A program made the position numbers and the translations under genes. A stretch of 64,000 bases of DNA from Escherichia phage vB_EcoM_PHB13, in the sequence record MK573636; one strand, given 5' to 3'. Below, one piece after another: positions 5,436 through 23,017 of this stretch (the stretch's first letter is position 1; every line of letters starts with the position of its first letter). The notes beneath the pieces were generated by a model. The model made no database searches. It was not told the DNA's origin and saw only the letters and a list, made by a program, of their open reading frames with translations.

Positions 5436-5908
5436 TATATTTTGTCGATTTAGATTTTACGATCACAGATCCAACGCATCGACTAGCAAAGATGCCAACC
5501 GAAAATCTTGATAAAGTCGAGTCGTGGATCGAATATAACAAGGCATGTGGGGGAGATTCCCCCATTTACGATGTAGTTCGTGTTATTAATGCTCTTTCCG
5601 ACAACGGGCATTTGATTTACATCCTCACCGGACGAAGTTCACATGCTTACATGGAAACAATTGATTGGTTAATTTCTAACGGGGTGTGTTTTGATAAAAT
5701 CTTTATGAGAGGCCGTACCGATTCCCGTAAAGACTATCACATCAAATTAGAGGTAATTAAATCCTTTGATAAAGATGAAGTTGTCGGAGTCTTTGAGGAT
5801 AACCCAGAAGTGATTAAAGTTTTGCGTGAAAATGGTTATCGTGTCTTTGACGTAGGAAATCACAAAGATAAGACGCGAGCGGATATTGCAAATCACGGTC
5901 ATGATTAA
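5432..5908 (+). CDS. HAD-superfamily phosphatase-like protein
   Basis: N-terminal DLDFTITD matches HAD DxDxT motif I; start overlaps nrdB stop (ATGA coupling). Confidence 0.55.
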   Translation: MIYFVDLDFTITDPTHRLAKMPTENLDKVESWIEYNKACGGDSPIYDVVRVINALSDNGHLIYILTGRSSHAYMETIDWLISNGVCFDKIFMRGRTDSRKDYHIKLEVIKSFDKDEVVGVFEDNPEVIKVLRENGYRVFDVGNHKDKTRADIANHGHD

Positions 5909-5920
5909 TGTTTGTTCAAA

Positions 5921-5945
5921 GTCGCCCATAGTGGCGACTTTTTTT
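5921..5945 (+). terminator. rho-independent terminator (GTCGCC-loop-GGCGAC + T7)
   Basis: 6-bp GC stem followed by TTTTTTT directly after 5432-5908 gene. Confidence 0.8.
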
Positions 5946-5956
5946 GTTATTGGGTG

Positions 5957-5985
5957 TTGACAATCTGATCTTGCCATAGCATAAT
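5957..5985 (+). promoter_or_regulatory. early promoter TTGACA-N17-CATAAT
   Basis: Hexamers read directly; 25 nt upstream of ORF 6010. Confidence 0.6.
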
Positions 5986-6009
5986 ACGCACATCGAAACG
6001 GAGGAACAT

Positions 6010-6228
6010 ATGGAAACAGAAGAACAAGTCATTGCATATTTTCATCGTAAAAAGATGAAACTTAGAATCGAAAAGCAGTACATCAATCACTACATTGACC
6101 GAGTTCACTTAACAAGTACACCTTACCTATTCCGGTTGATAAACCCTAGAAAACGGTGGGAGAAGTTGGATAGAAACACAAAAATAATTGATAAGCTCAC
6201 CCAATGGTGGAATGAATACAACAAGTAA
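6010..6228 (+). CDS. hypothetical early protein (72 aa)
   Basis: ORF with SD GGAGGAA, preceded by promoter. Confidence 0.5.
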   Translation: METEEQVIAYFHRKKMKLRIEKQYINHYIDRVHLTSTPYLFRLINPRKRWEKLDRNTKIIDKLTQWWNEYNK

Positions 6229-8866: not shown

Positions 8867-9190
8867 ATGTCAAAACTGATATACATTGTTATCATATCTG
8901 TGTTGCTGGGGGTAGGTGGCAATATGTGGTGGGAAAATAAAAAGGAGGTAGATCGACTGAATCAGGAATTTACAGAGTATAAGAAAAAGACAGATGAGAA
9001 GATGAAGATTGTAGACTCACTACAAAAGGAGATGTACGGAATAAGAACTAAGTTTGCAGAAGAACAAAACAAAGCAATGAAAGACGCTACACGAGGCTAT
9101 GTAGTAGCACAAAAACCCAAGTTGGTAGAGAAACAGCTTAATGATTCATTTAAGGAGTTTACCGAAGAATTAAAGGAGGCTACTAAATGA
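8867..9190 (+). CDS. putative i-spanin (N-terminal TM helix + periplasmic coiled-coil)
   Basis: 107 aa; hydrophobic LIYIVIISVLLGVGG then charged helical region; next to pseT where T4 places its spanins. Confidence 0.55.
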   Translation: MSKLIYIVIISVLLGVGGNMWWENKKEVDRLNQEFTEYKKKTDEKMKIVDSLQKEMYGIRTKFAEEQNKAMKDATRGYVVAQKPKLVEKQLNDSFKEFTEELKEATK

Positions 9191-9306
9191 GCATAGAAAT
9201 ATTGCCTACACAAGAGCAGATAAGCAATTTTAATCTGGTTGATTATCTGTGGATAGGTGCAAGCATTATTATCCTGATGGTGTTTTCAATTTTCGTGATA
9301 CACTGG

Positions 9307-9639
9307 ATGTTTAAGAAAGCACATAAGAATTTTCAGACCGCCATAATCCATGTCTTCGCTGTGCCTATTGTATTTGCTCTTTCTTCGTGTACAATGGACC
9401 ATTATTCACAGGAACCGAAATTACATCCTCCACTACCAGCACCAATAGAAAAAGTTGACATTGACCTGAATGTGGATACAATAGACGGTAAGCCTAGAGT
9501 TTCTATGTCGTGGGAGGACTCCCAAAAATTTAGAGTCTGGTTGGCTGATATTAAGAGATATACACTTGAAAGTAAGTTGATCCTGTGTTATTATCGCAAA
9601 GAACTCAATGAGGAACGGTGTAAACCGAAGGAGAAATAA
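9307..9639 (+). CDS. putative o-spanin lipoprotein (lipobox LSSC)
   Basis: Signal peptide MFKKAHKNFQTAIIHVFAVPIVFA + lipobox LSS-C, Pro-rich mature part. ORF track opens at 9187; the Met at 9307 is chosen because it gives a lipoprotein signal. Confidence 0.45.
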   Translation: MFKKAHKNFQTAIIHVFAVPIVFALSSCTMDHYSQEPKLHPPLPAPIEKVDIDLNVDTIDGKPRVSMSWEDSQKFRVWLADIKRYTLESKLILCYYRKELNEERCKPKEK

Positions 9640-15637: not shown

Positions 15638-15949
15638 ATGAAATACATCGTAACGCTGCCAATGATTGACTTCGACGGAACCATGAACACCCAGAAGACC
15701 ATGAGCGCGGAGAACCAACTGAAAAACGCTACCCTGATTCGTGAAGTTCGCAAGGCACTGGCAAAAGAATTTAACACCAAAATTCATTCTGTAACTGGCG
15801 AACGTTTCGCGGATCATCTTGATATCAATATCAAACCAGTGCGCAACGGTGTTATCTCTGTAACAACCAACCGCCCACATGCTGACGCTGATAATCTGAC
15901 CGCTCGCGCAGAAGATGTAATTATGACCGTTATCATGGAAAAACTTTAA
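15638..15949 (+). CDS. hypothetical early protein (103 aa)
   Basis: ORF with PeSL SD AAGGAGAATCAAAAATG. Confidence 0.55.
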   Translation: MKYIVTLPMIDFDGTMNTQKTMSAENQLKNATLIREVRKALAKEFNTKIHSVTGERFADHLDINIKPVRNGVISVTTNRPHADADNLTARAEDVIMTVIMEKL

Positions 15950-16219: not shown

Positions 16220-16522
16220 ATGGCAAAAGTTCAGGTAGGTGAGGTCTTCAAAATGGAAGACCATACCGTGGAAGAGATGAAAGGCGCAGTATTGAAAGTA
16301 ATTAATTCAATGTGGCGTAGTGTGCTTTACATCAACTTTATCGACGGTGATGTGTGGTGGGCTAGCGATAGCGATAAATGGGATATCAAGTTCTACAAAG
16401 GTCATACTCACTGGTTAGGATCAGAGGATGTTGTAGAAGTTCTGGCGGTTGATGTTATGCCAGGAGAGATCGAGAATCTTAGCGGAACAGCAAAAGAAGC
16501 ATTGACACGCCATTTTGCGTAA
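16220..16522 (+). CDS. HxHW/VLAVDV paralog family member A
   Basis: GHTHW then VLAVDV; SD AGAGAGGTGA. Confidence 0.55.
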   Translation: MAKVQVGEVFKMEDHTVEEMKGAVLKVINSMWRSVLYINFIDGDVWWASDSDKWDIKFYKGHTHWLGSEDVVEVLAVDVMPGEIENLSGTAKEALTRHFA

Positions 16523-16786: not shown

Positions 16787-17095
16787 ATGGAACAAACTAA
16801 GCTATTTGTCGCGGAACCTTTTGTAAGAGACAATAAAAATCTGGCTAAAACAATCATTTTGTATTCGGATTGGATCTTTTATATCGATGGTAATTTAGAC
16901 GTATATTGTCGCACAGCTCCAACTGATTCGTTTTATATCGAAGAAAACGACACTCATAATCATTGGTATGATGGAAACGACAAAACCGAACTAGCTGTTG
17001 TCCTAGCGTCAGACGTAGAACCTGAAAACGCGGACAAAGTAGCAGACAAATTTATGAAGTACGCATATAAAGATAAAAATGAAGATGAAGAATAA
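16787..17095 (+). CDS. HxHW/VLAVDV paralog family member B
   Basis: THNHW then VVLASDV; start moved from track 16730 to Met after SD GAGGAA. Confidence 0.5.
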   Translation: MEQTKLFVAEPFVRDNKNLAKTIILYSDWIFYIDGNLDVYCRTAPTDSFYIEENDTHNHWYDGNDKTELAVVLASDVEPENADKVADKFMKYAYKDKNEDEE

Positions 17096-17102
17096 AAAGT
17101 TG

Positions 17103-17131
17103 TTGACAGGGGATCACCGATCCCCTATAAT
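17103..17131 (+). promoter_or_regulatory. PeSL early promoter TTGACA-GGGGATCACCGATCCCC-TATAAT
   Basis: Perfect palindromic spacer. Confidence 0.65.
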
Positions 17132-17165
17132 ACACACATACCAACGAGATATAGGAGAATCAAAA

Positions 17166-17333
17166 ATGTTCCAGACTAAAGCAGAATGCGAAGCATACAT
17201 TGTAGCAAACCACGGTGAAGACTACCTGAAATTCGATATCGTAGTAGCACAGAAGATCACCGGAATGGTTGCAAAATATCTGGGTGTTAAAGAAGGTTAC
17301 TATCCTAGCAACGCACCAGAAATTAACAAATAA
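17166..17333 (+). CDS. small protein (55 aa), duplicate copy 1 (MFQTKAECEAY...)
   Basis: Track start 17079 spans the promoter and is rejected; paralog of 20424-20591. Confidence 0.5.
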   Translation: MFQTKAECEAYIVANHGEDYLKFDIVVAQKITGMVAKYLGVKEGYYPSNAPEINK

Positions 17334-17336
17334 TAG

Positions 17337-17365
17337 TTGACAATGATTAAAGGGAGTAGTAAGAT
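17337..17365 (+). promoter_or_regulatory. PeSL early promoter TTGACA-N17-TAAGAT (GGGAGTA/TACTCCC stem)
   Basis: Direct reading. Confidence 0.6.
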
Positions 17366-17397
17366 ACTCCCATCAAGACAACAAACGGAGAATCAAA

Positions 17398-17577
17398 ATG
17401 AAAGCTATCGAAGTTCAGAAGTACATGGAAATCATCGTTGAAAGTAAAGCACATTTAGTGTTGACTACTCACGTAGGATATGATAAAAATGTGCATATGC
17501 TGGTAGACAACATCGGCTGGATGAAGTTTAATCCTAACGAGAACGTACAAGCTCAAGAAATGACCATCCCTTTCTAA
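17398..17577 (+). CDS. small hypothetical protein (59 aa)
   Basis: ORF below track cutoff after PeSL SD. Confidence 0.4.
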   Translation: MKAIEVQKYMEIIVESKAHLVLTTHVGYDKNVHMLVDNIGWMKFNPNENVQAQEMTIPF

Positions 17578-17589
17578 GAGGAATATATT

Positions 17590-17868
17590 ATGATGCGAAT
17601 TACTGCAACGCTGGATAAGACACACAAAGAAAGATTTTTCGGTATGATCTTAAAAACGCCGATTTTCGATAATTACCTTTATGTTGACTATAACGGTCAC
17701 ATTAGCTATAAATGTAAAAATGATATTCGTGATTCCTTTGGTGATAAATCACAAGCCGATATTCACGATCATTGGTGGAACCATGACGAACCTTTACGGG
17801 TTATCGCAGTTGATGTAAAAACAACAAAAGAAGCTGATAAGGTAGTGAATGATTATGAGCAAATTTAA
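17590..17868 (+). CDS. HxHW/VLAVDV paralog family member C
   Basis: IHDHWW then VIAVDV. Confidence 0.5.
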   Translation: MMRITATLDKTHKERFFGMILKTPIFDNYLYVDYNGHISYKCKNDIRDSFGDKSQADIHDHWWNHDEPLRVIAVDVKTTKEADKVVNDYEQI

Positions 17869-18064
17869 AGATTATAAAGCATATCAACAGATCTTGCGAG
17901 TATACGAACCAGAGTTCGCCGAAAAGATGATGGAAGATGCATCAAAATGCCCGTCCTTTTCTGGAAACAAAAACCATTATTCTACTGGTATTGTATCATG
18001 GAAAGAAACCGCATATACTCAACAATGGATAGATGTGTTTTCAAAAACTCTTGATTGGTGTTAA
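17849..18064 (+). CDS. small protein, MSKFKDY tandem paralog 1
   Basis: N-terminus MSKFKDYKAY; MMEDA motif shared with next ORF. Confidence 0.45.
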   Translation: MIMSKFKDYKAYQQILRVYEPEFAEKMMEDASKCPSFSGNKNHYSTGIVSWKETAYTQQWIDVFSKTLDWC

Positions 18065-18282
18065 TTATGAGTAAATTTAAAGATTATCGAGCATATAAAG
18101 CGATCTGCGATATATTCGATGAAAAGACCGCTCATGCAATGATGGAAGATGCAGAACAATATGAATCATTCGTCAATTCCAAAGATTGCACAGTAAACGA
18201 GGTTGTGTGCTGGAAAGATACAAAGTATGAAGAAAAATGGATTACTGTGTATTACGGAGAACTAGAATATGAAATTAACTAA
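18055..18282 (+). CDS. small protein, MSKFKDY tandem paralog 2
   Basis: N-terminus MSKFKDYRAY; MMEDAEQ; start possibly at internal Met 18067. Confidence 0.45.
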   Translation: MVLIMSKFKDYRAYKAICDIFDEKTAHAMMEDAEQYESFVNSKDCTVNEVVCWKDTKYEEKWITVYYGELEYEIN

Positions 18283-18589
18283 AAAGATTTTCCCAGAATT
18301 GCGTAACTGTCTGTTACTGGTTACTGAATATAAACCTTATACGATCTACTTGTATGTTGATGAAAATCTGAAAATCCGTTACTATGATTATACGTCTCCA
18401 GTAATGAGATCATTTGCTCACGCGATAGCAAACAATTGTATGAATCATAATCATTGGGTAAGTGATAATGATCATGATGCGTCAGAAGTTGTAGTGATCG
18501 CATGGAATCTATCACCAGCGGAAGCAGATCAAGCACGCATTAAGCATTATGCGAAAAACAATTGGTTTGACCTTATAAGTGAGGACTAA
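18269..18589 (+). CDS. HxHW/VLAVDV paralog family member D
   Basis: NHNHW then VVVIAWNL. Confidence 0.5.
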   Translation: MKLTKKIFPELRNCLLLVTEYKPYTIYLYVDENLKIRYYDYTSPVMRSFAHAIANNCMNHNHWVSDNDHDASEVVVIAWNLSPAEADQARIKHYAKNNWFDLISED

Positions 18590-18593
18590 TATT

Positions 18594-18872
18594 ATGTTCA
18601 AAGTAGGTGATAAGTTTATTCTTAGTCGTGATATTCTCCCTAATCTGAAAGGTTGTATCATCAATCCTAGTAAAAATTCATGGTTTTATCTGTTTATCGA
18701 CGACAAACTGAATGTACGCGCCGAATATAAAGAAGGTCTTCGTACTGGTCTAGGTTTCTTTCACGATCATGATCATAGCCATTGGCTAAACGGTGGATTC
18801 GAAGCAACGGTGCTAGCGGTTGATGTGACTTACACGAACATCATAGAAAAATATCAAAAAATTATTTTATAA
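18594..18872 (+). CDS. HxHW/VLAVDV paralog family member E
   Basis: HDHDHSHW then VLAVDV; start placed at ATG after SD GAGGACT. Confidence 0.5.
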   Translation: MFKVGDKFILSRDILPNLKGCIINPSKNSWFYLFIDDKLNVRAEYKEGLRTGLGFFHDHDHSHWLNGGFEATVLAVDVTYTNIIEKYQKIIL

Positions 18873-18878
18873 AAAGTG

Positions 18879-18907
18879 TTGACATAAGATCGGGTGTATA
18901 GCATAAT
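18879..18907 (+). promoter_or_regulatory. PeSL early promoter TTGACA-N17-CATAAT (GGGTGTAT/ATACACCC stem)
   Basis: Direct reading. Confidence 0.6.
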
Positions 18908-18953
18908 ACACCCATCGAAACGAGATACACTTTCTAACTAGGAGAATCAAATT

Positions 18954-19241
18954 ATGGCATACATCACTATCACTCTGAAAGTTAACAAATTTGCTCACGC
19001 TGCACACGAAACCGATAATGCAATCCGTAACAACAAGTTTGCACGTCTGGTACGCGATGCAGTAGCTAAAGAGTTCAACTTCAAATTTGCAGATGGTAAA
19101 GTTATCACTAAATGGACTCATGACGGCGAAACTAAAGTAGAACTTGCTGACAACTTCGCAAATCAGGAATATGCACACCGCCGCATCAATGAAATCATCA
19201 GCGATGAACTCTACTACGGAGTACAGGAAGGTTTGTTTTAA
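18954..19241 (+). CDS. hypothetical early protein (95 aa)
   Basis: ORF after PeSL SD; weak AKEFN similarity to 15638 ORF. Confidence 0.5.
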   Translation: MAYITITLKVNKFAHAAHETDNAIRNNKFARLVRDAVAKEFNFKFADGKVITKWTHDGETKVELADNFANQEYAHRRINEIISDELYYGVQEGLF

Positions 19242-19246
19242 TATAG

Positions 19247-19268
19247 GGGGCGTTAAGCCCCTTTTAAT
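19247..19268 (+). terminator. rho-independent terminator (GGGGC-GTTAA-GCCCC + TTTT)
   Basis: Read directly. Confidence 0.65.
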
Positions 19269-19290
19269 CTATCTGAATGAGGATATCACT

Positions 19291-19599
19291 ATGAAAAATC
19301 TTGTAGTTGAATTTACCCGCGAGAATTTACCACAATTTCGCAATTCTCTGCTTAAACTAGAGAACAGTAATTATGATGTATATTTTTACATCACCGAAGA
19401 TCTAGAGATCCTTTACGCTGATTACCCAGGTCCGATCCGTACCTTCGAAACCGCATCAAAATATAAAAATGTGCACGGTCATGAGCACTGGTTACGAGAA
19501 AACCCAGGTCGCAAGAAAGCACGCGTTAAAGTGTTGGCGATTGACATAACACCAGCATACGCCGACCGGATTGCACAGAATGATTATTTGTCTAAATGA
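19291..19599 (+). CDS. HxHW/VLAVDV paralog family member F
   Basis: HGHEHW then VLAIDI; start moved from track 19144 to Met after terminator and SD GAGGATA. Confidence 0.5.
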   Translation: MKNLVVEFTRENLPQFRNSLLKLENSNYDVYFYITEDLEILYADYPGPIRTFETASKYKNVHGHEHWLRENPGRKKARVKVLAIDITPAYADRIAQNDYLSK

Positions 19600-19606
19600 T
19601 TTCATT

Positions 19607-19633
19607 AGCCGACCTTAGTGTCGGCTTTTTTAT
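19607..19633 (+). terminator. rho-independent terminator (AGCCGAC-loop-GTCGGCT + T6)
   Basis: Read directly. Confidence 0.75.
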
Positions 19634-19657
19634 TGCATAAAATTTAAAAAAAAGGCA

Positions 19658-19686
19658 TTGACACCAGATCACGCCTATAGCATAAT
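19658..19686 (+). promoter_or_regulatory. PeSL early promoter TTGACA-N17-CATAAT
   Basis: Direct reading. Confidence 0.6.
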
Positions 19687-19726
19687 ACACCCATCGAAAC
19701 GAGATACCACTTAGGAGAATCAAACA

Positions 19727-19996
19727 ATGGCGCTGACTAAAACCACTACCAACTTTGCAAAACGTCACGGCTTCGACCTTGAAATCAATAGCTTTAACGA
19801 TTACACCCTTCTGTGTGTATATGAAATCGAAAATGATTGCGAGTGGATGTTCAGCTATCGCGTAAACGAAGACGGATCTTTCACTTGGAACGGAAATATC
19901 TATCTTGCACAGGAAGTAAAAGAAGAACTTCCGGCGACTATCAAAGATGAGAAACATTTACGTCAAGTTTTAAAATTTATTTCTGAAAATATCTAA
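19727..19996 (+). CDS. hypothetical early protein (89 aa)
   Basis: ORF after PeSL SD. Confidence 0.5.
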   Translation: MALTKTTTNFAKRHGFDLEINSFNDYTLLCVYEIENDCEWMFSYRVNEDGSFTWNGNIYLAQEVKEELPATIKDEKHLRQVLKFISENI

Positions 19997-20003
19997 AAAG
20001 TTG

Positions 20004-20032
20004 TTGACACCAAAGTAAGAACATAGCATAAT
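20004..20032 (+). promoter_or_regulatory. PeSL early promoter TTGACA-N17-CATAAT
   Basis: Direct reading. Confidence 0.6.
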
Positions 20033-20065
20033 ACACCCATACCGAAACGAACTGGAGAATCAAAA

Positions 20066-20347
20066 ATGAAATTCATCAAAGCAACCGAAATCCTGAAAAA
20101 CAAAGAAGCATACATCGGAAACATCGTTGGTATGAACATTCGCGGCGCTGGTAGCCAGTGGACCAAACTGGTTGATGTTAAAGCTAAAGGCGATAAAATT
20201 GAGTTCACTGTAAAAATGCTTACTCATAACGCACATATGGGTATCAAGACAAAAACGATGGCAGCAGATAAAAGCATCAACTATCAGGATCTGGGTGATT
20301 GGCTGAACTGGTGCAAAATGCACAACATCGAAACTAATCACGAATAA
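20066..20347 (+). CDS. hypothetical early protein (93 aa)
   Basis: ORF after PeSL SD. Confidence 0.5.
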   Translation: MKFIKATEILKNKEAYIGNIVGMNIRGAGSQWTKLVDVKAKGDKIEFTVKMLTHNAHMGIKTKTMAADKSINYQDLGDWLNWCKMHNIETNHE

Positions 20348-20361
20348 TTTTAAAAAAGTTG

Positions 20362-20390
20362 TTGACGGGGATCGGGAGATCCCCTATAAT
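20362..20390 (+). promoter_or_regulatory. PeSL early promoter TTGACG-GGGATCGGGAGATCCCC-TATAAT
   Basis: Direct reading. Confidence 0.65.
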
Positions 20391-20423
20391 ACACACATAC
20401 CGAAACGAAATAGGAGAATCAAA

Positions 20424-20591
20424 ATGTTCGAGACTAAAGCAGCATGTGAAGCATATATCATTGAAACCCACGGCGAAGATTATCTGAAATTTGACATTGT
20501 AGTAGCACAGAAGATTGTAGGGATGGTTGCGAAATACCTCGGAGTTAAAGAAGGTTACTATCCAAGCAACGCACCGGAAATTAACAAATAA
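20424..20591 (+). CDS. small protein (55 aa), duplicate copy 2 (MFETKAACEAY...)
   Basis: ~85% nt identity by eye to 17166-17333; identical C-terminus GVKEGYYPSNAPEINK. Confidence 0.5.
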   Translation: MFETKAACEAYIIETHGEDYLKFDIVVAQKIVGMVAKYLGVKEGYYPSNAPEINK

Positions 20592-20606
20592 TTTTTATAA
20601 AAAGTG

Positions 20607-20635
20607 TTGACAGGGGAGACACCCTCCCCTATAAT
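20607..20635 (+). promoter_or_regulatory. PeSL early promoter TTGACA-GGGGAGACACCCTCCCC-TATAAT driving the 20676-22731 operon
   Basis: Direct reading. Confidence 0.65.
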
Positions 20636-20675
20636 ACAACCATCAAGACGAGATACCACTTAGGAGAATCAAACA

Positions 20676-20927
20676 ATGGCTAACATCGAAACCGCAAAGA
20701 AAATCGCTAAAGACCTGAACGTTAAAGGCTTCCGTAAACTGAAATTACAGCGTGTACGCTACACCATCGGCAAACAGTGCTCTTTCATGAGCGAAGAAGT
20801 TGCTAACAGCCTCATTGATAACCTGATTGCGGCTGGCTGGGAAGTTGCGGATCTGAAAACTTGCCGCGAACTGGCTAACAAAGGTCTTTTAGATTCTGTT
20901 ACTATAAAACCAATGGGGGCAGCGTGA
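20676..20927 (+). CDS. hypothetical protein (83 aa), first gene of operon
   Basis: ORF after PeSL SD; stop overlaps next start. Confidence 0.5.
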   Translation: MANIETAKKIAKDLNVKGFRKLKLQRVRYTIGKQCSFMSEEVANSLIDNLIAAGWEVADLKTCRELANKGLLDSVTIKPMGAA

Positions 20928-22738: not shown

Positions 22739-22768
22739 TTGACAGGGGGATCGGTGATCCCCTATAAT
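22739..22768 (+). promoter_or_regulatory. PeSL early promoter TTGACA-GGGGGATCGGTGATCCCC-TATAAT
   Basis: Direct reading. Confidence 0.65.
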
Positions 22769-22804
22769 GCAAACATACCGAAACGAACTACTAAGGAGTA
22801 TCAA

Positions 22805-23017
22805 ATGGCTAACATCGAAATCATCATTACCGACGTAACTTATGACCGCATTAACGAAATCGGTACTGCTTTGCTAGAAGATGGAACAACTCGCACCATC
22901 AACTACGCAGAATACGTTGAAATGCGCGGTTGTATTAAACGAGTAGGAAAATATATCCTGATTGAAAAAGACTATTCAGGATACACATTAGAGCAATTGC
23001 TCGATGGTGCATTATAA
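22805..23017 (+). CDS. hypothetical early protein (70 aa)
   Basis: Start after PeSL SD; track start 22736 spans promoter and is rejected. Confidence 0.5.
   Translation: MANIEIIITDVTYDRINEIGTALLEDGTTRTINYAEYVEMRGCIKRVGKYILIEKDYSGYTLEQLLDGAL

Follow-up and report, generated by a model that had tools for sequence, protein, structure and literature searches.

In T4-like coliphages of the RB49/phi1 group, cassettes made up of a PeSL promoter/hairpin element and an ORFan have been described together with PeSL mini-circles (Arbiol et al. 2010, PMC2839356; Comeau et al. 2014, PMC4122927). The locus by which the PeSL was defined is the one treated here; PeSL206/205 was cloned from it and open reading frame (ORF) 191 was found on a packaged mini-circle (PMC2839356). 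The sequenced packaged mini-circle carries ORFs 191-194, with its crossover located between the -10 hexamer and the ATG. PeSL206/205 yielded ~13,000 Miller units of lacZ and is a very strong promoter, and a terminator or attenuator role was assayed for the PeSL211/210 stem-loop only (PMC2839356). In the present work, a 64-kb stretch of Escherichia phage vB_EcoM_PHB13 (sequence record MK573636; hereafter, the window) was analysed with regard to a 55-aa gene that occurs in it twice, as copies A and B, each behind its own PeSL. We consider it roughly 85% probable that the two copies are an old paralogue pair of one-gene PeSL cassettes (RB49 ORF205 and ORF191), whose duplication took place no later than in the ancestor of the sampled Krischvirus phages and which were kept by purifying selection and still recombine.

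The window was assigned to Krischvirus, and the region was 93-96% identical to Krischvirus genomes including RB49, phi1, JSE, GEC-3S and Whisky; the database nucleotide comparison returned no record identical to the window region. Copy A (17166-17333, plus strand) is the orthologue of RB49 ORF205 (RB49p205, NP_891776) and copy B (20424-20591, plus strand) that of RB49 ORF191 (RB49p191, NP_891762). Both are placed among hypothetical ORFs in the hyperplastic region between gene 30 (gp30 DNA ligase) and the Dcm DNA methyltransferase. Each copy consists of 55 codons plus stop, and the starts are 3258 nt apart. The DNA identity of A and B is 84.5%, with 26 differences in 168 nt, 19 of which are at third codon positions; at the codon level, 17 changes are synonymous and 6 non-synonymous. 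The two proteins share 49 of 55 residues (89%; BLASTP E = 1e-37). These values conform with an earlier note on this DNA, which had placed the gene, with exact coordinates, twice about 3.2 kb apart at about 85% nucleotide identity. Exactly two copies were detected in the window by tblastn, and the remaining paralogue pairs revealed by an all-against-all comparison of window ORFs did not exceed 42% protein identity.

A repeat finder returned an ungapped 172-nt pair (17163-17334 and 20421-20592) with 85% identity. The right end of the A/B homology falls exactly at the stop codon (17334), where the next PeSL starts, while the left edge blends into the PeSL; beyond AAAAAGTTGTTGAC on the upstream side and beyond the stop codon on the downstream side, the flanks of A and B are unrelated. 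The repeated unit, hence, comprises ~245 bp, that is, one PeSL-bounded cassette, with no homology extending over several genes, and the designation "segmental" given in the earlier note was too wide. An assembly artefact was considered and rejected, as the pair was found in 51 independently sequenced genomes.

The elements upstream of A and B were inspected for the PeSL features of Arbiol et al. (2010), namely sigma-70 -35 and -10 hexamers, a 16-18 nt spacer, a polyG...polyC stem-loop, an upstream AT tract, a Shine-Dalgarno (SD) sequence and start codon at the 3' end, and an intergenic position upstream of an ORFan. PeSL-A (17091-17165, plus strand), the orthologue of RB49/phi1 PeSL206/205, is composed of an AT-rich tract, a -35 TTGACA (17103-17108), a hairpin (17109-17125), a -10 TATAAT (17126-17131), a leader and the SD GGAG (17154-17157); over the 75 nt spanning the -35 to the ATG, 2 positions differ from phi1 PeSL206/205. 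PeSL-B (193/191; 20350-20423, plus strand) comprises a -35 TTGACG (20362-20367), a hairpin (20367-20384), a -10 TATAAT (20385-20390), a leader of the ACCGAAACGAA subtype and an SD. The GGGGATC...GATCCCC hairpins that had been reported for both copies were recovered in the 17-nt sigma-70 spacers as GGGGATC-ACC-GATCCCC in PeSL-A and GGGGATC-GGGA-GATCCCC in PeSL-B, each with a 7-bp stem, and folding energies were -13.3 kcal/mol (z = -3.2) and -14.3 kcal/mol (z = -2.7), respectively. The sigma-70 consensus score was 12/12 for A (TTGACA-17-TATAAT) and 11/12 for B (TTGACG-17-TATAAT); AAAAAGTTG stands upstream of the -35 hexamer, and GGAG is found 8 nt 5' of the ATG in copy A and 7 nt 5' of it in copy B. 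Promoter hexamers with spacer, stem-loop, AT tract, SD and intergenic location were, thus, present in both elements.

PeSL-A and PeSL-B are 84% identical, compared with 86% between PeSL-B and an unrelated PeSL at 15947, and PeSL-A is 81% identical to the PeSLs at 15947 and 22727. Since the similarity between the two elements is no higher than that to unrelated PeSLs, the copy-specific homology is that of the coding sequence. The promoter similarity of A and B appears to be a family-wide PeSL resemblance that is not diagnostic of duplication, and the promoter, which had been counted into the duplicated unit, does not mark that unit. Alignment of the two cassettes including their flanks placed the similarity in the coding sequence, which is indicative of a true cassette duplication; a similarity confined to the promoter was rejected, as the likeness of the PeSLs is generic while that of the coding sequence is copy-specific.

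Variation was also observed in the hairpins. The PeSL-A stem of RB49 and JSE (GGGGATCGGTGATCCCC) is that of the window PeSL at 22746-22763, and in JSE PeSL-B the window's A-type stem (GGGGATCACCGATCCCC, window 17109-17125) is joined to a B-type leader; PeSL hairpin sequences, thus, appear to move independently of cassettes. Canonical terminator-like hairpins with T-runs were found inside the A-B interval at 19245-19262 (after ORF198) and 19607-19626 (after ORF197), and are distinct from the PeSL hairpins, which have no T-runs.

To date the duplication, copy number per genome was surveyed in 58 Krischvirus records. Both A-type and B-type copies were present in 51 of these, including RB49, phi1 and JSE, a single copy was present in seven, and none of the 58 lacked both. 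Synonymous (dS) and non-synonymous (dN) divergence was determined according to Nei-Gojobori, revealing for A versus B of the window a dS of 1.05, a dN of 0.055 and an omega of 0.05. Across phages, mean dS(A,B) was 0.83, as against orthologue values of 0.16 (A) and 0.05 (B). Copies of the A type were 94-100% identical to one another and those of the B type 96-100%, while A-type and B-type copies shared 84-90% identity. A dS(A,B) far above the orthologue values, together with the presence of both types in most records, implies that the duplication predates the radiation of the sampled genus, and it is, hence, old, at least as old as sampled Krischvirus. Both copies are genuine genes under strong purifying selection. 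Only 2 of the 17 synonymous changes were located in the last 15 codons, which, by a rough binomial estimate (p about 0.1), is not significant.

These values bear on the proposal of the earlier note that the duplication of the cassette was recent, and on an explanation by which it occurred in this phage and was maintained through an advantage of having the same protein in two doses. The high protein identity, two near-consensus, strong promoters and the retention of at least one copy in 58/58 records would fit such a scenario. It is contradicted by a dS of about 1 where orthologues differ by 0.05-0.16, and by the copy-number comparison, as distinct A and B types were present in RB49, phi1, JSE and 48 other records; we regard it as very improbable, and the duplication was not recent on either count. 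The six amino acid differences remain type-fixed despite conversion between the copies (see below), and the seven database phages with one copy are viable. Type-fixed differences and single-copy phages, to which one uncultivated viral contig can be added, argue against simple dosage, and dosage selection appears somewhat disfavoured.

Comparison with the outgroups P0003, a homologue of the 55-aa gene from a Logan contig, and swi2, a siphovirus, showed A and B to be mutually closest, with 83% DNA identity and 64% identity at third positions, versus 40-46% to the outgroups. Copy B carries the ancestral residue at 4 of the 6 differing positions, with Q3, A14, N15 and T32 being derived in A, which makes A the faster-evolving copy. 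Another possible origin of the pair is that A and B are xenologues, i.e., diverged cassette alleles acquired separately, for instance as packaged PeSL mini-circles, and inserted at different PeSLs in the absence of any intragenomic duplication. Single-copy homologues with 40-74% aa identity were indeed found in unrelated siphoviruses such as swi2, D10, SeSz-2, Sasha, Sergei and Bas82, implying that the family moves horizontally; mini-circles containing ORF191 are packaged (PMC2839356), and the synonymous divergence of A and B is near saturation. Separate acquisition is, nevertheless, unlikely, because the DNA and third-position values given above place A and B closest to one another and because no A-only or B-only donor was found outside Krischvirus in phage, IMG/VR, genome and protein collections.

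Both proteins match PHROG 8009, a function-unassigned phage family, over the full length (profile positions 1-55 of 55; E = 1.2e-38 for A and 6.8e-38 for B). A search of 5.8 billion protein clusters returned 5 proteins, 3 of which are full-length (A-type, B-type and P0003); the other two, P0004 and P0005, match at the N-terminus only and then diverge. In a search of 1.8 billion representatives, three convincing 50%-identity clusters were obtained, and the long multi-stretch matches P0008-P0012 were judged spurious. No family member was detected in a GTDB genome scan, and IMG/VR added only Krischvirus-like and swi2-like contigs. Judging from these searches, the 55-aa protein appears to be a rare phage-only family.

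Structure prediction by AlphaFold was poor with a 3-sequence input (predicted local distance difference test score, pLDDT, of 51), but reached a pLDDT of 78 with a 7-sequence input, giving a predicted two-helix hairpin (residues 5-16 and 18-39). The GYYPSN tail is conserved and was modelled with low confidence as floppy. Five of the six residue differences between A and B map to helix 1 (3, 7, 13-15) and one (32) to helix 2. Our best guess, inferred from context only, is that the protein serves as a strongly expressed, though individually dispensable, early accessory in host takeover or counter-defence.

The P0003 locus was noted in its own right. On Logan contig SRR5584643_240 (5481-5926), P0003, which is 83% identical to B, directly follows a gene homologous to ORF194 of the window (41% identity, E = 3e-25). 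The neighbouring PHP-domain and 2-hydroxyacid dehydrogenase-like genes suggest a chromosomal island or prophage; no match of the contig was found among complete E. coli genomes. ORF194 and ORF191 are together on the RB49 mini-circle, and ORF194 has been listed among island-associated ORFs (Arbiol et al., PMC2839356).

Ongoing recombination between the copies was analysed in a cassette-level alignment of 13 related phage genomes and the window, in which 22 copies were examined at 20 diagnostic coding positions fixed between "pure" A and "pure" B copies. Mosaic states always formed contiguous runs, and 6 of the 22 copies carried conversion patches. A 6-site B-type patch (window-equivalent 17216-17240) was found in copy A of Brandy and PTE-Eco09, and a 3-site B-type patch, nested at the same place, in copy A of KMB43 and LF73P4. 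Conversely, copy B of PTE-Eco09 has an A-type leader and first 8 codons, and copy B of LF73P4 a 2-site A-type patch at its 3' end.

Deletions were found in addition to conversions. Between A and B of the window lie 10 small ORFs (RB49 ORFs 204-193; 17398-20347, plus strand), which form a block that occurs only once, and this block is absent as a whole from Cognac and FL04, where the gene order is ORF206, one cassette, ORF190, the entire A-B interval having been lost by an A×B crossover. In FL04, the switch from A to B is inside the PeSL (17066-17143), and in Cognac it is in a 21-nt SD-ATG segment from the leader to codon 3 (17151-17171); because the junctions differ, at least two deletion events are implied. 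The same two phages could be taken to represent the ancestral single-copy state, with the second copy and the ORF204-193 block inserted later, and a single-copy architecture with intact flanks does exist in them. An ancestral copy would, however, be expected to be intermediate between A and B, and the Cognac and FL04 cassettes are sharp A|B mosaics with halves nearly identical to present-day A and B and with different switch points, so that we give hardly any credence to this possibility.

In Brandy, JK32 and UPWr_E1, only cassette B is missing. To its right, this cassette is bordered by PeSL 191/190 (20595-20675, plus strand), which was the partner in the precise excision; the one PeSL left is chimeric, with its 5' half coming from 193/191, its leader from 191/190, and the junction directly 3' of the -10. 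The corresponding right border of cassette A is PeSL 205/204 (17334-17397, plus strand), with a -35 at 17337-17342 and a hairpin GGGAGTA...TACTCCC overlapping the -10 TAAGAT at 17360-17365. MIZ4 has lost ORFs 191-187, with PeSL193/191 joined to the PeSL at window 22727, and its near-identical sister record MIZ5 was single-copy in the copy-number survey. The junction positions (from the -10 to the ATG, or in the AT-rich/-35 region) match those reported for PeSL mini-circles. Thus, with PeSL×PeSL as well as A×B products present in natural relatives, the PeSL-mediated recombination suggested in the earlier note was borne out, and PeSL- and repeat-mediated recombination at the A/B locus can be regarded as well supported by these comparisons.

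Further cassette-level differences were observed in the same region. PTE-Eco09 (5618-6168 of the compared stretch) is without ORFs 209-206, with ORF210 abutting PeSL-A, and JSE (9100-9411 of the compared stretch) has an extra 103-aa ORF directly upstream of PeSL-B. Within the window, the PeSL homology between 20661-20689 and 22790-22818 extends into the first five codons (ATGGCTAACATCGAA, MANIE). The MANIE start is common to the otherwise unrelated ORF190 and the ORF at 22805, at whose PeSL the MIZ4 deletion is joined, and PeSL-mediated exchange may have created these shared N-termini.

Taken as an old paralogue pair, A and B would have arisen as follows. One PeSL-bounded cassette (PeSL, SD and 55 codons) would have been duplicated no later than in the common ancestor of sampled Krischvirus, either by unequal PeSL×PeSL exchange between genome copies with later insertions or through a PeSL mini-circle that was excised and then inserted again at another PeSL. 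Both copies would have been retained as translated genes under strong purifying selection, with A gaining its four derived substitutions and with a small helical hairpin protein being made from a very strong early promoter. The ~245 bp of direct-repeat homology would still be a substrate for the phage homologous recombination machinery, where a non-crossover outcome would leave short conversion patches and a crossover would remove the intervening 3.2-4.3 kb, so that a single chimeric cassette remains. Additionally, each flanking PeSL could recombine with its neighbour, resulting in excision of a single cassette.

Several points weigh against this interpretation or restrict it. Of the 58 genomes, 13 were examined in detail, and the number of independent events is a minimum that was derived from distinct junctions and not from a genome phylogeny. 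Some conversion patches could have come from recombination between co-infecting phages instead of within one genome. PeSL sequences are so generic that they do not reveal where the duplication was originally joined, and its mechanism is, therefore, given here as two candidate routes. The stems of PeSL-A and PeSL-B are without a T-run, and a simple intrinsic-terminator scan flagged neither of them. Concerning protein function, the searches gave no Pfam or PADLOC match and no PDB sequence match with the family profile; with the 7-sequence model, Foldseek found no PDB match, and BFVD gave only the GEC-3S orthologue.

As a tentative extension, which we think is possible but rather doubtful, the A/B pair might act as a recombination handle that makes the ORF204-ORF191 block (10-14 early ORFs, 3.3-4.3 kb) a mobile super-cassette. 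If so, an intramolecular A×B crossover would free a multi-gene circle with one chimeric 55-aa gene and PeSL, which could, once packaged, insert again into any phage carrying the 55-aa gene. The Cognac and FL04 deletions would then be the reciprocal outcome, and the pair would persist partly for its role as a handle and not only for that of the protein.

The neighbourhood of the pair was found to be rich in other paralogues, as the stretch from ORF210 to ORF191 has 17 ORFs, 12 of which belong to paralogue families. Six small ORFs (16220-16522, 16787-17095, 17590-17868, 18269-18589, 18594-18872 and 19291-19599, corresponding to RB49 ORFs 208, 206, 203, 200, 199 and 197) have in common an H-x-H-W motif with V-x-A-[VI]-D-[VI] after it, show 26-37% aa identity and are diverged paralogues; four of them are located between A and B and two upstream of A, and none gave a Pfam match above the curated threshold. 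RB49 ORFs 202 and 201 (17855-18064 and 18067-18282) are tandem paralogues with 41% aa identity and a 97-nt DNA repeat at 71%, both starting with MSKFKDY; with no PeSL between them, they look like a tandem duplication that proceeded without a PeSL. When the 23 ORFs of this region were searched, a weak likeness was detected between ORF210 (15638-15949) and ORF198 (18954-19241), with 36% over 50 aa and E = 2e-4. The gene order, with [210][HxHW][205] matching [198][HxHW][191], is suggestive of a larger ancient block duplication, but ORF197 pairs best with ORF200 and not with ORF206 or ORF208.

Compared with described systems, the pair is closest to RB49 ORF205/ORF191 and their phi1 and JSE orthologues, which are the same genes in the same order and in the same plastic region (gene 30 to methyltransferase), with 98-99% DNA identity to the window copies. 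The A-B spacing is 3258 nt in the window, 3275 in phi1, 3479 in JSE and 4326 in RB49, varying because other cassettes (ORF192, 195 and 196) come and go. In RB49, phi1 and JSE, the genes are annotated as hypothetical proteins only, and the terms "paralog" and "duplicat-" are not used for ORF205/ORF191 in PMC2839356 and PMC4122927. What appears to be new is that ORF205 and ORF191 are paralogues acting as a direct repeat that gives rise to deletions and conversions among isolates. PeSL recombination as such is already published, and the A/B locus is an ordinary example of it, which makes the result a modest one; on the 55-aa protein, the analysis provides no new biology. In the PeSL shuffling model, excision is directly evidenced by mini-circles, while placement at a second site is thinly evidenced, and a cassette that is present twice and PeSL-bounded on both sides is a natural example consistent with such placement. 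With base-level junctions for three kinds of event (A×B deletion, single-cassette excision and conversion patches), the locus could conveniently serve as a natural assay of ectopic recombination within a genus of therapeutic phages.

The anatomy of the two cassettes is that of the published PeSL and ORFan cassettes and mini-circles, being intergenic, upstream of ORFans and at indel junctions. Unlike in the published PeSL events, the homology used in the A×B exchange includes 168 bp of coding sequence, and a cassette occurring twice in one genome is a situation not discussed in PMC2839356 and PMC4122927. In non-essential regions of T4, deletions between short direct repeats have been described, and homology of under 50 bp is sufficient for recombination (Mosig 1998 and Singer 1982, as cited in PMC2839356). 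As in T4, direct repeats in a non-essential region lead here to viable deletion variants, the evidence in the present case, in contrast to the T4 work, being comparative and from natural isolates. Integron cassettes and lambdoid "morons", with which Arbiol et al. drew a parallel, are likewise single small genes travelling with their own expression signals. Different from these, neither an integrase nor an attC-type site is present at the A/B locus and the exchange is apparently general homologous recombination, so that the 55-aa gene cassette is a member of neither class.

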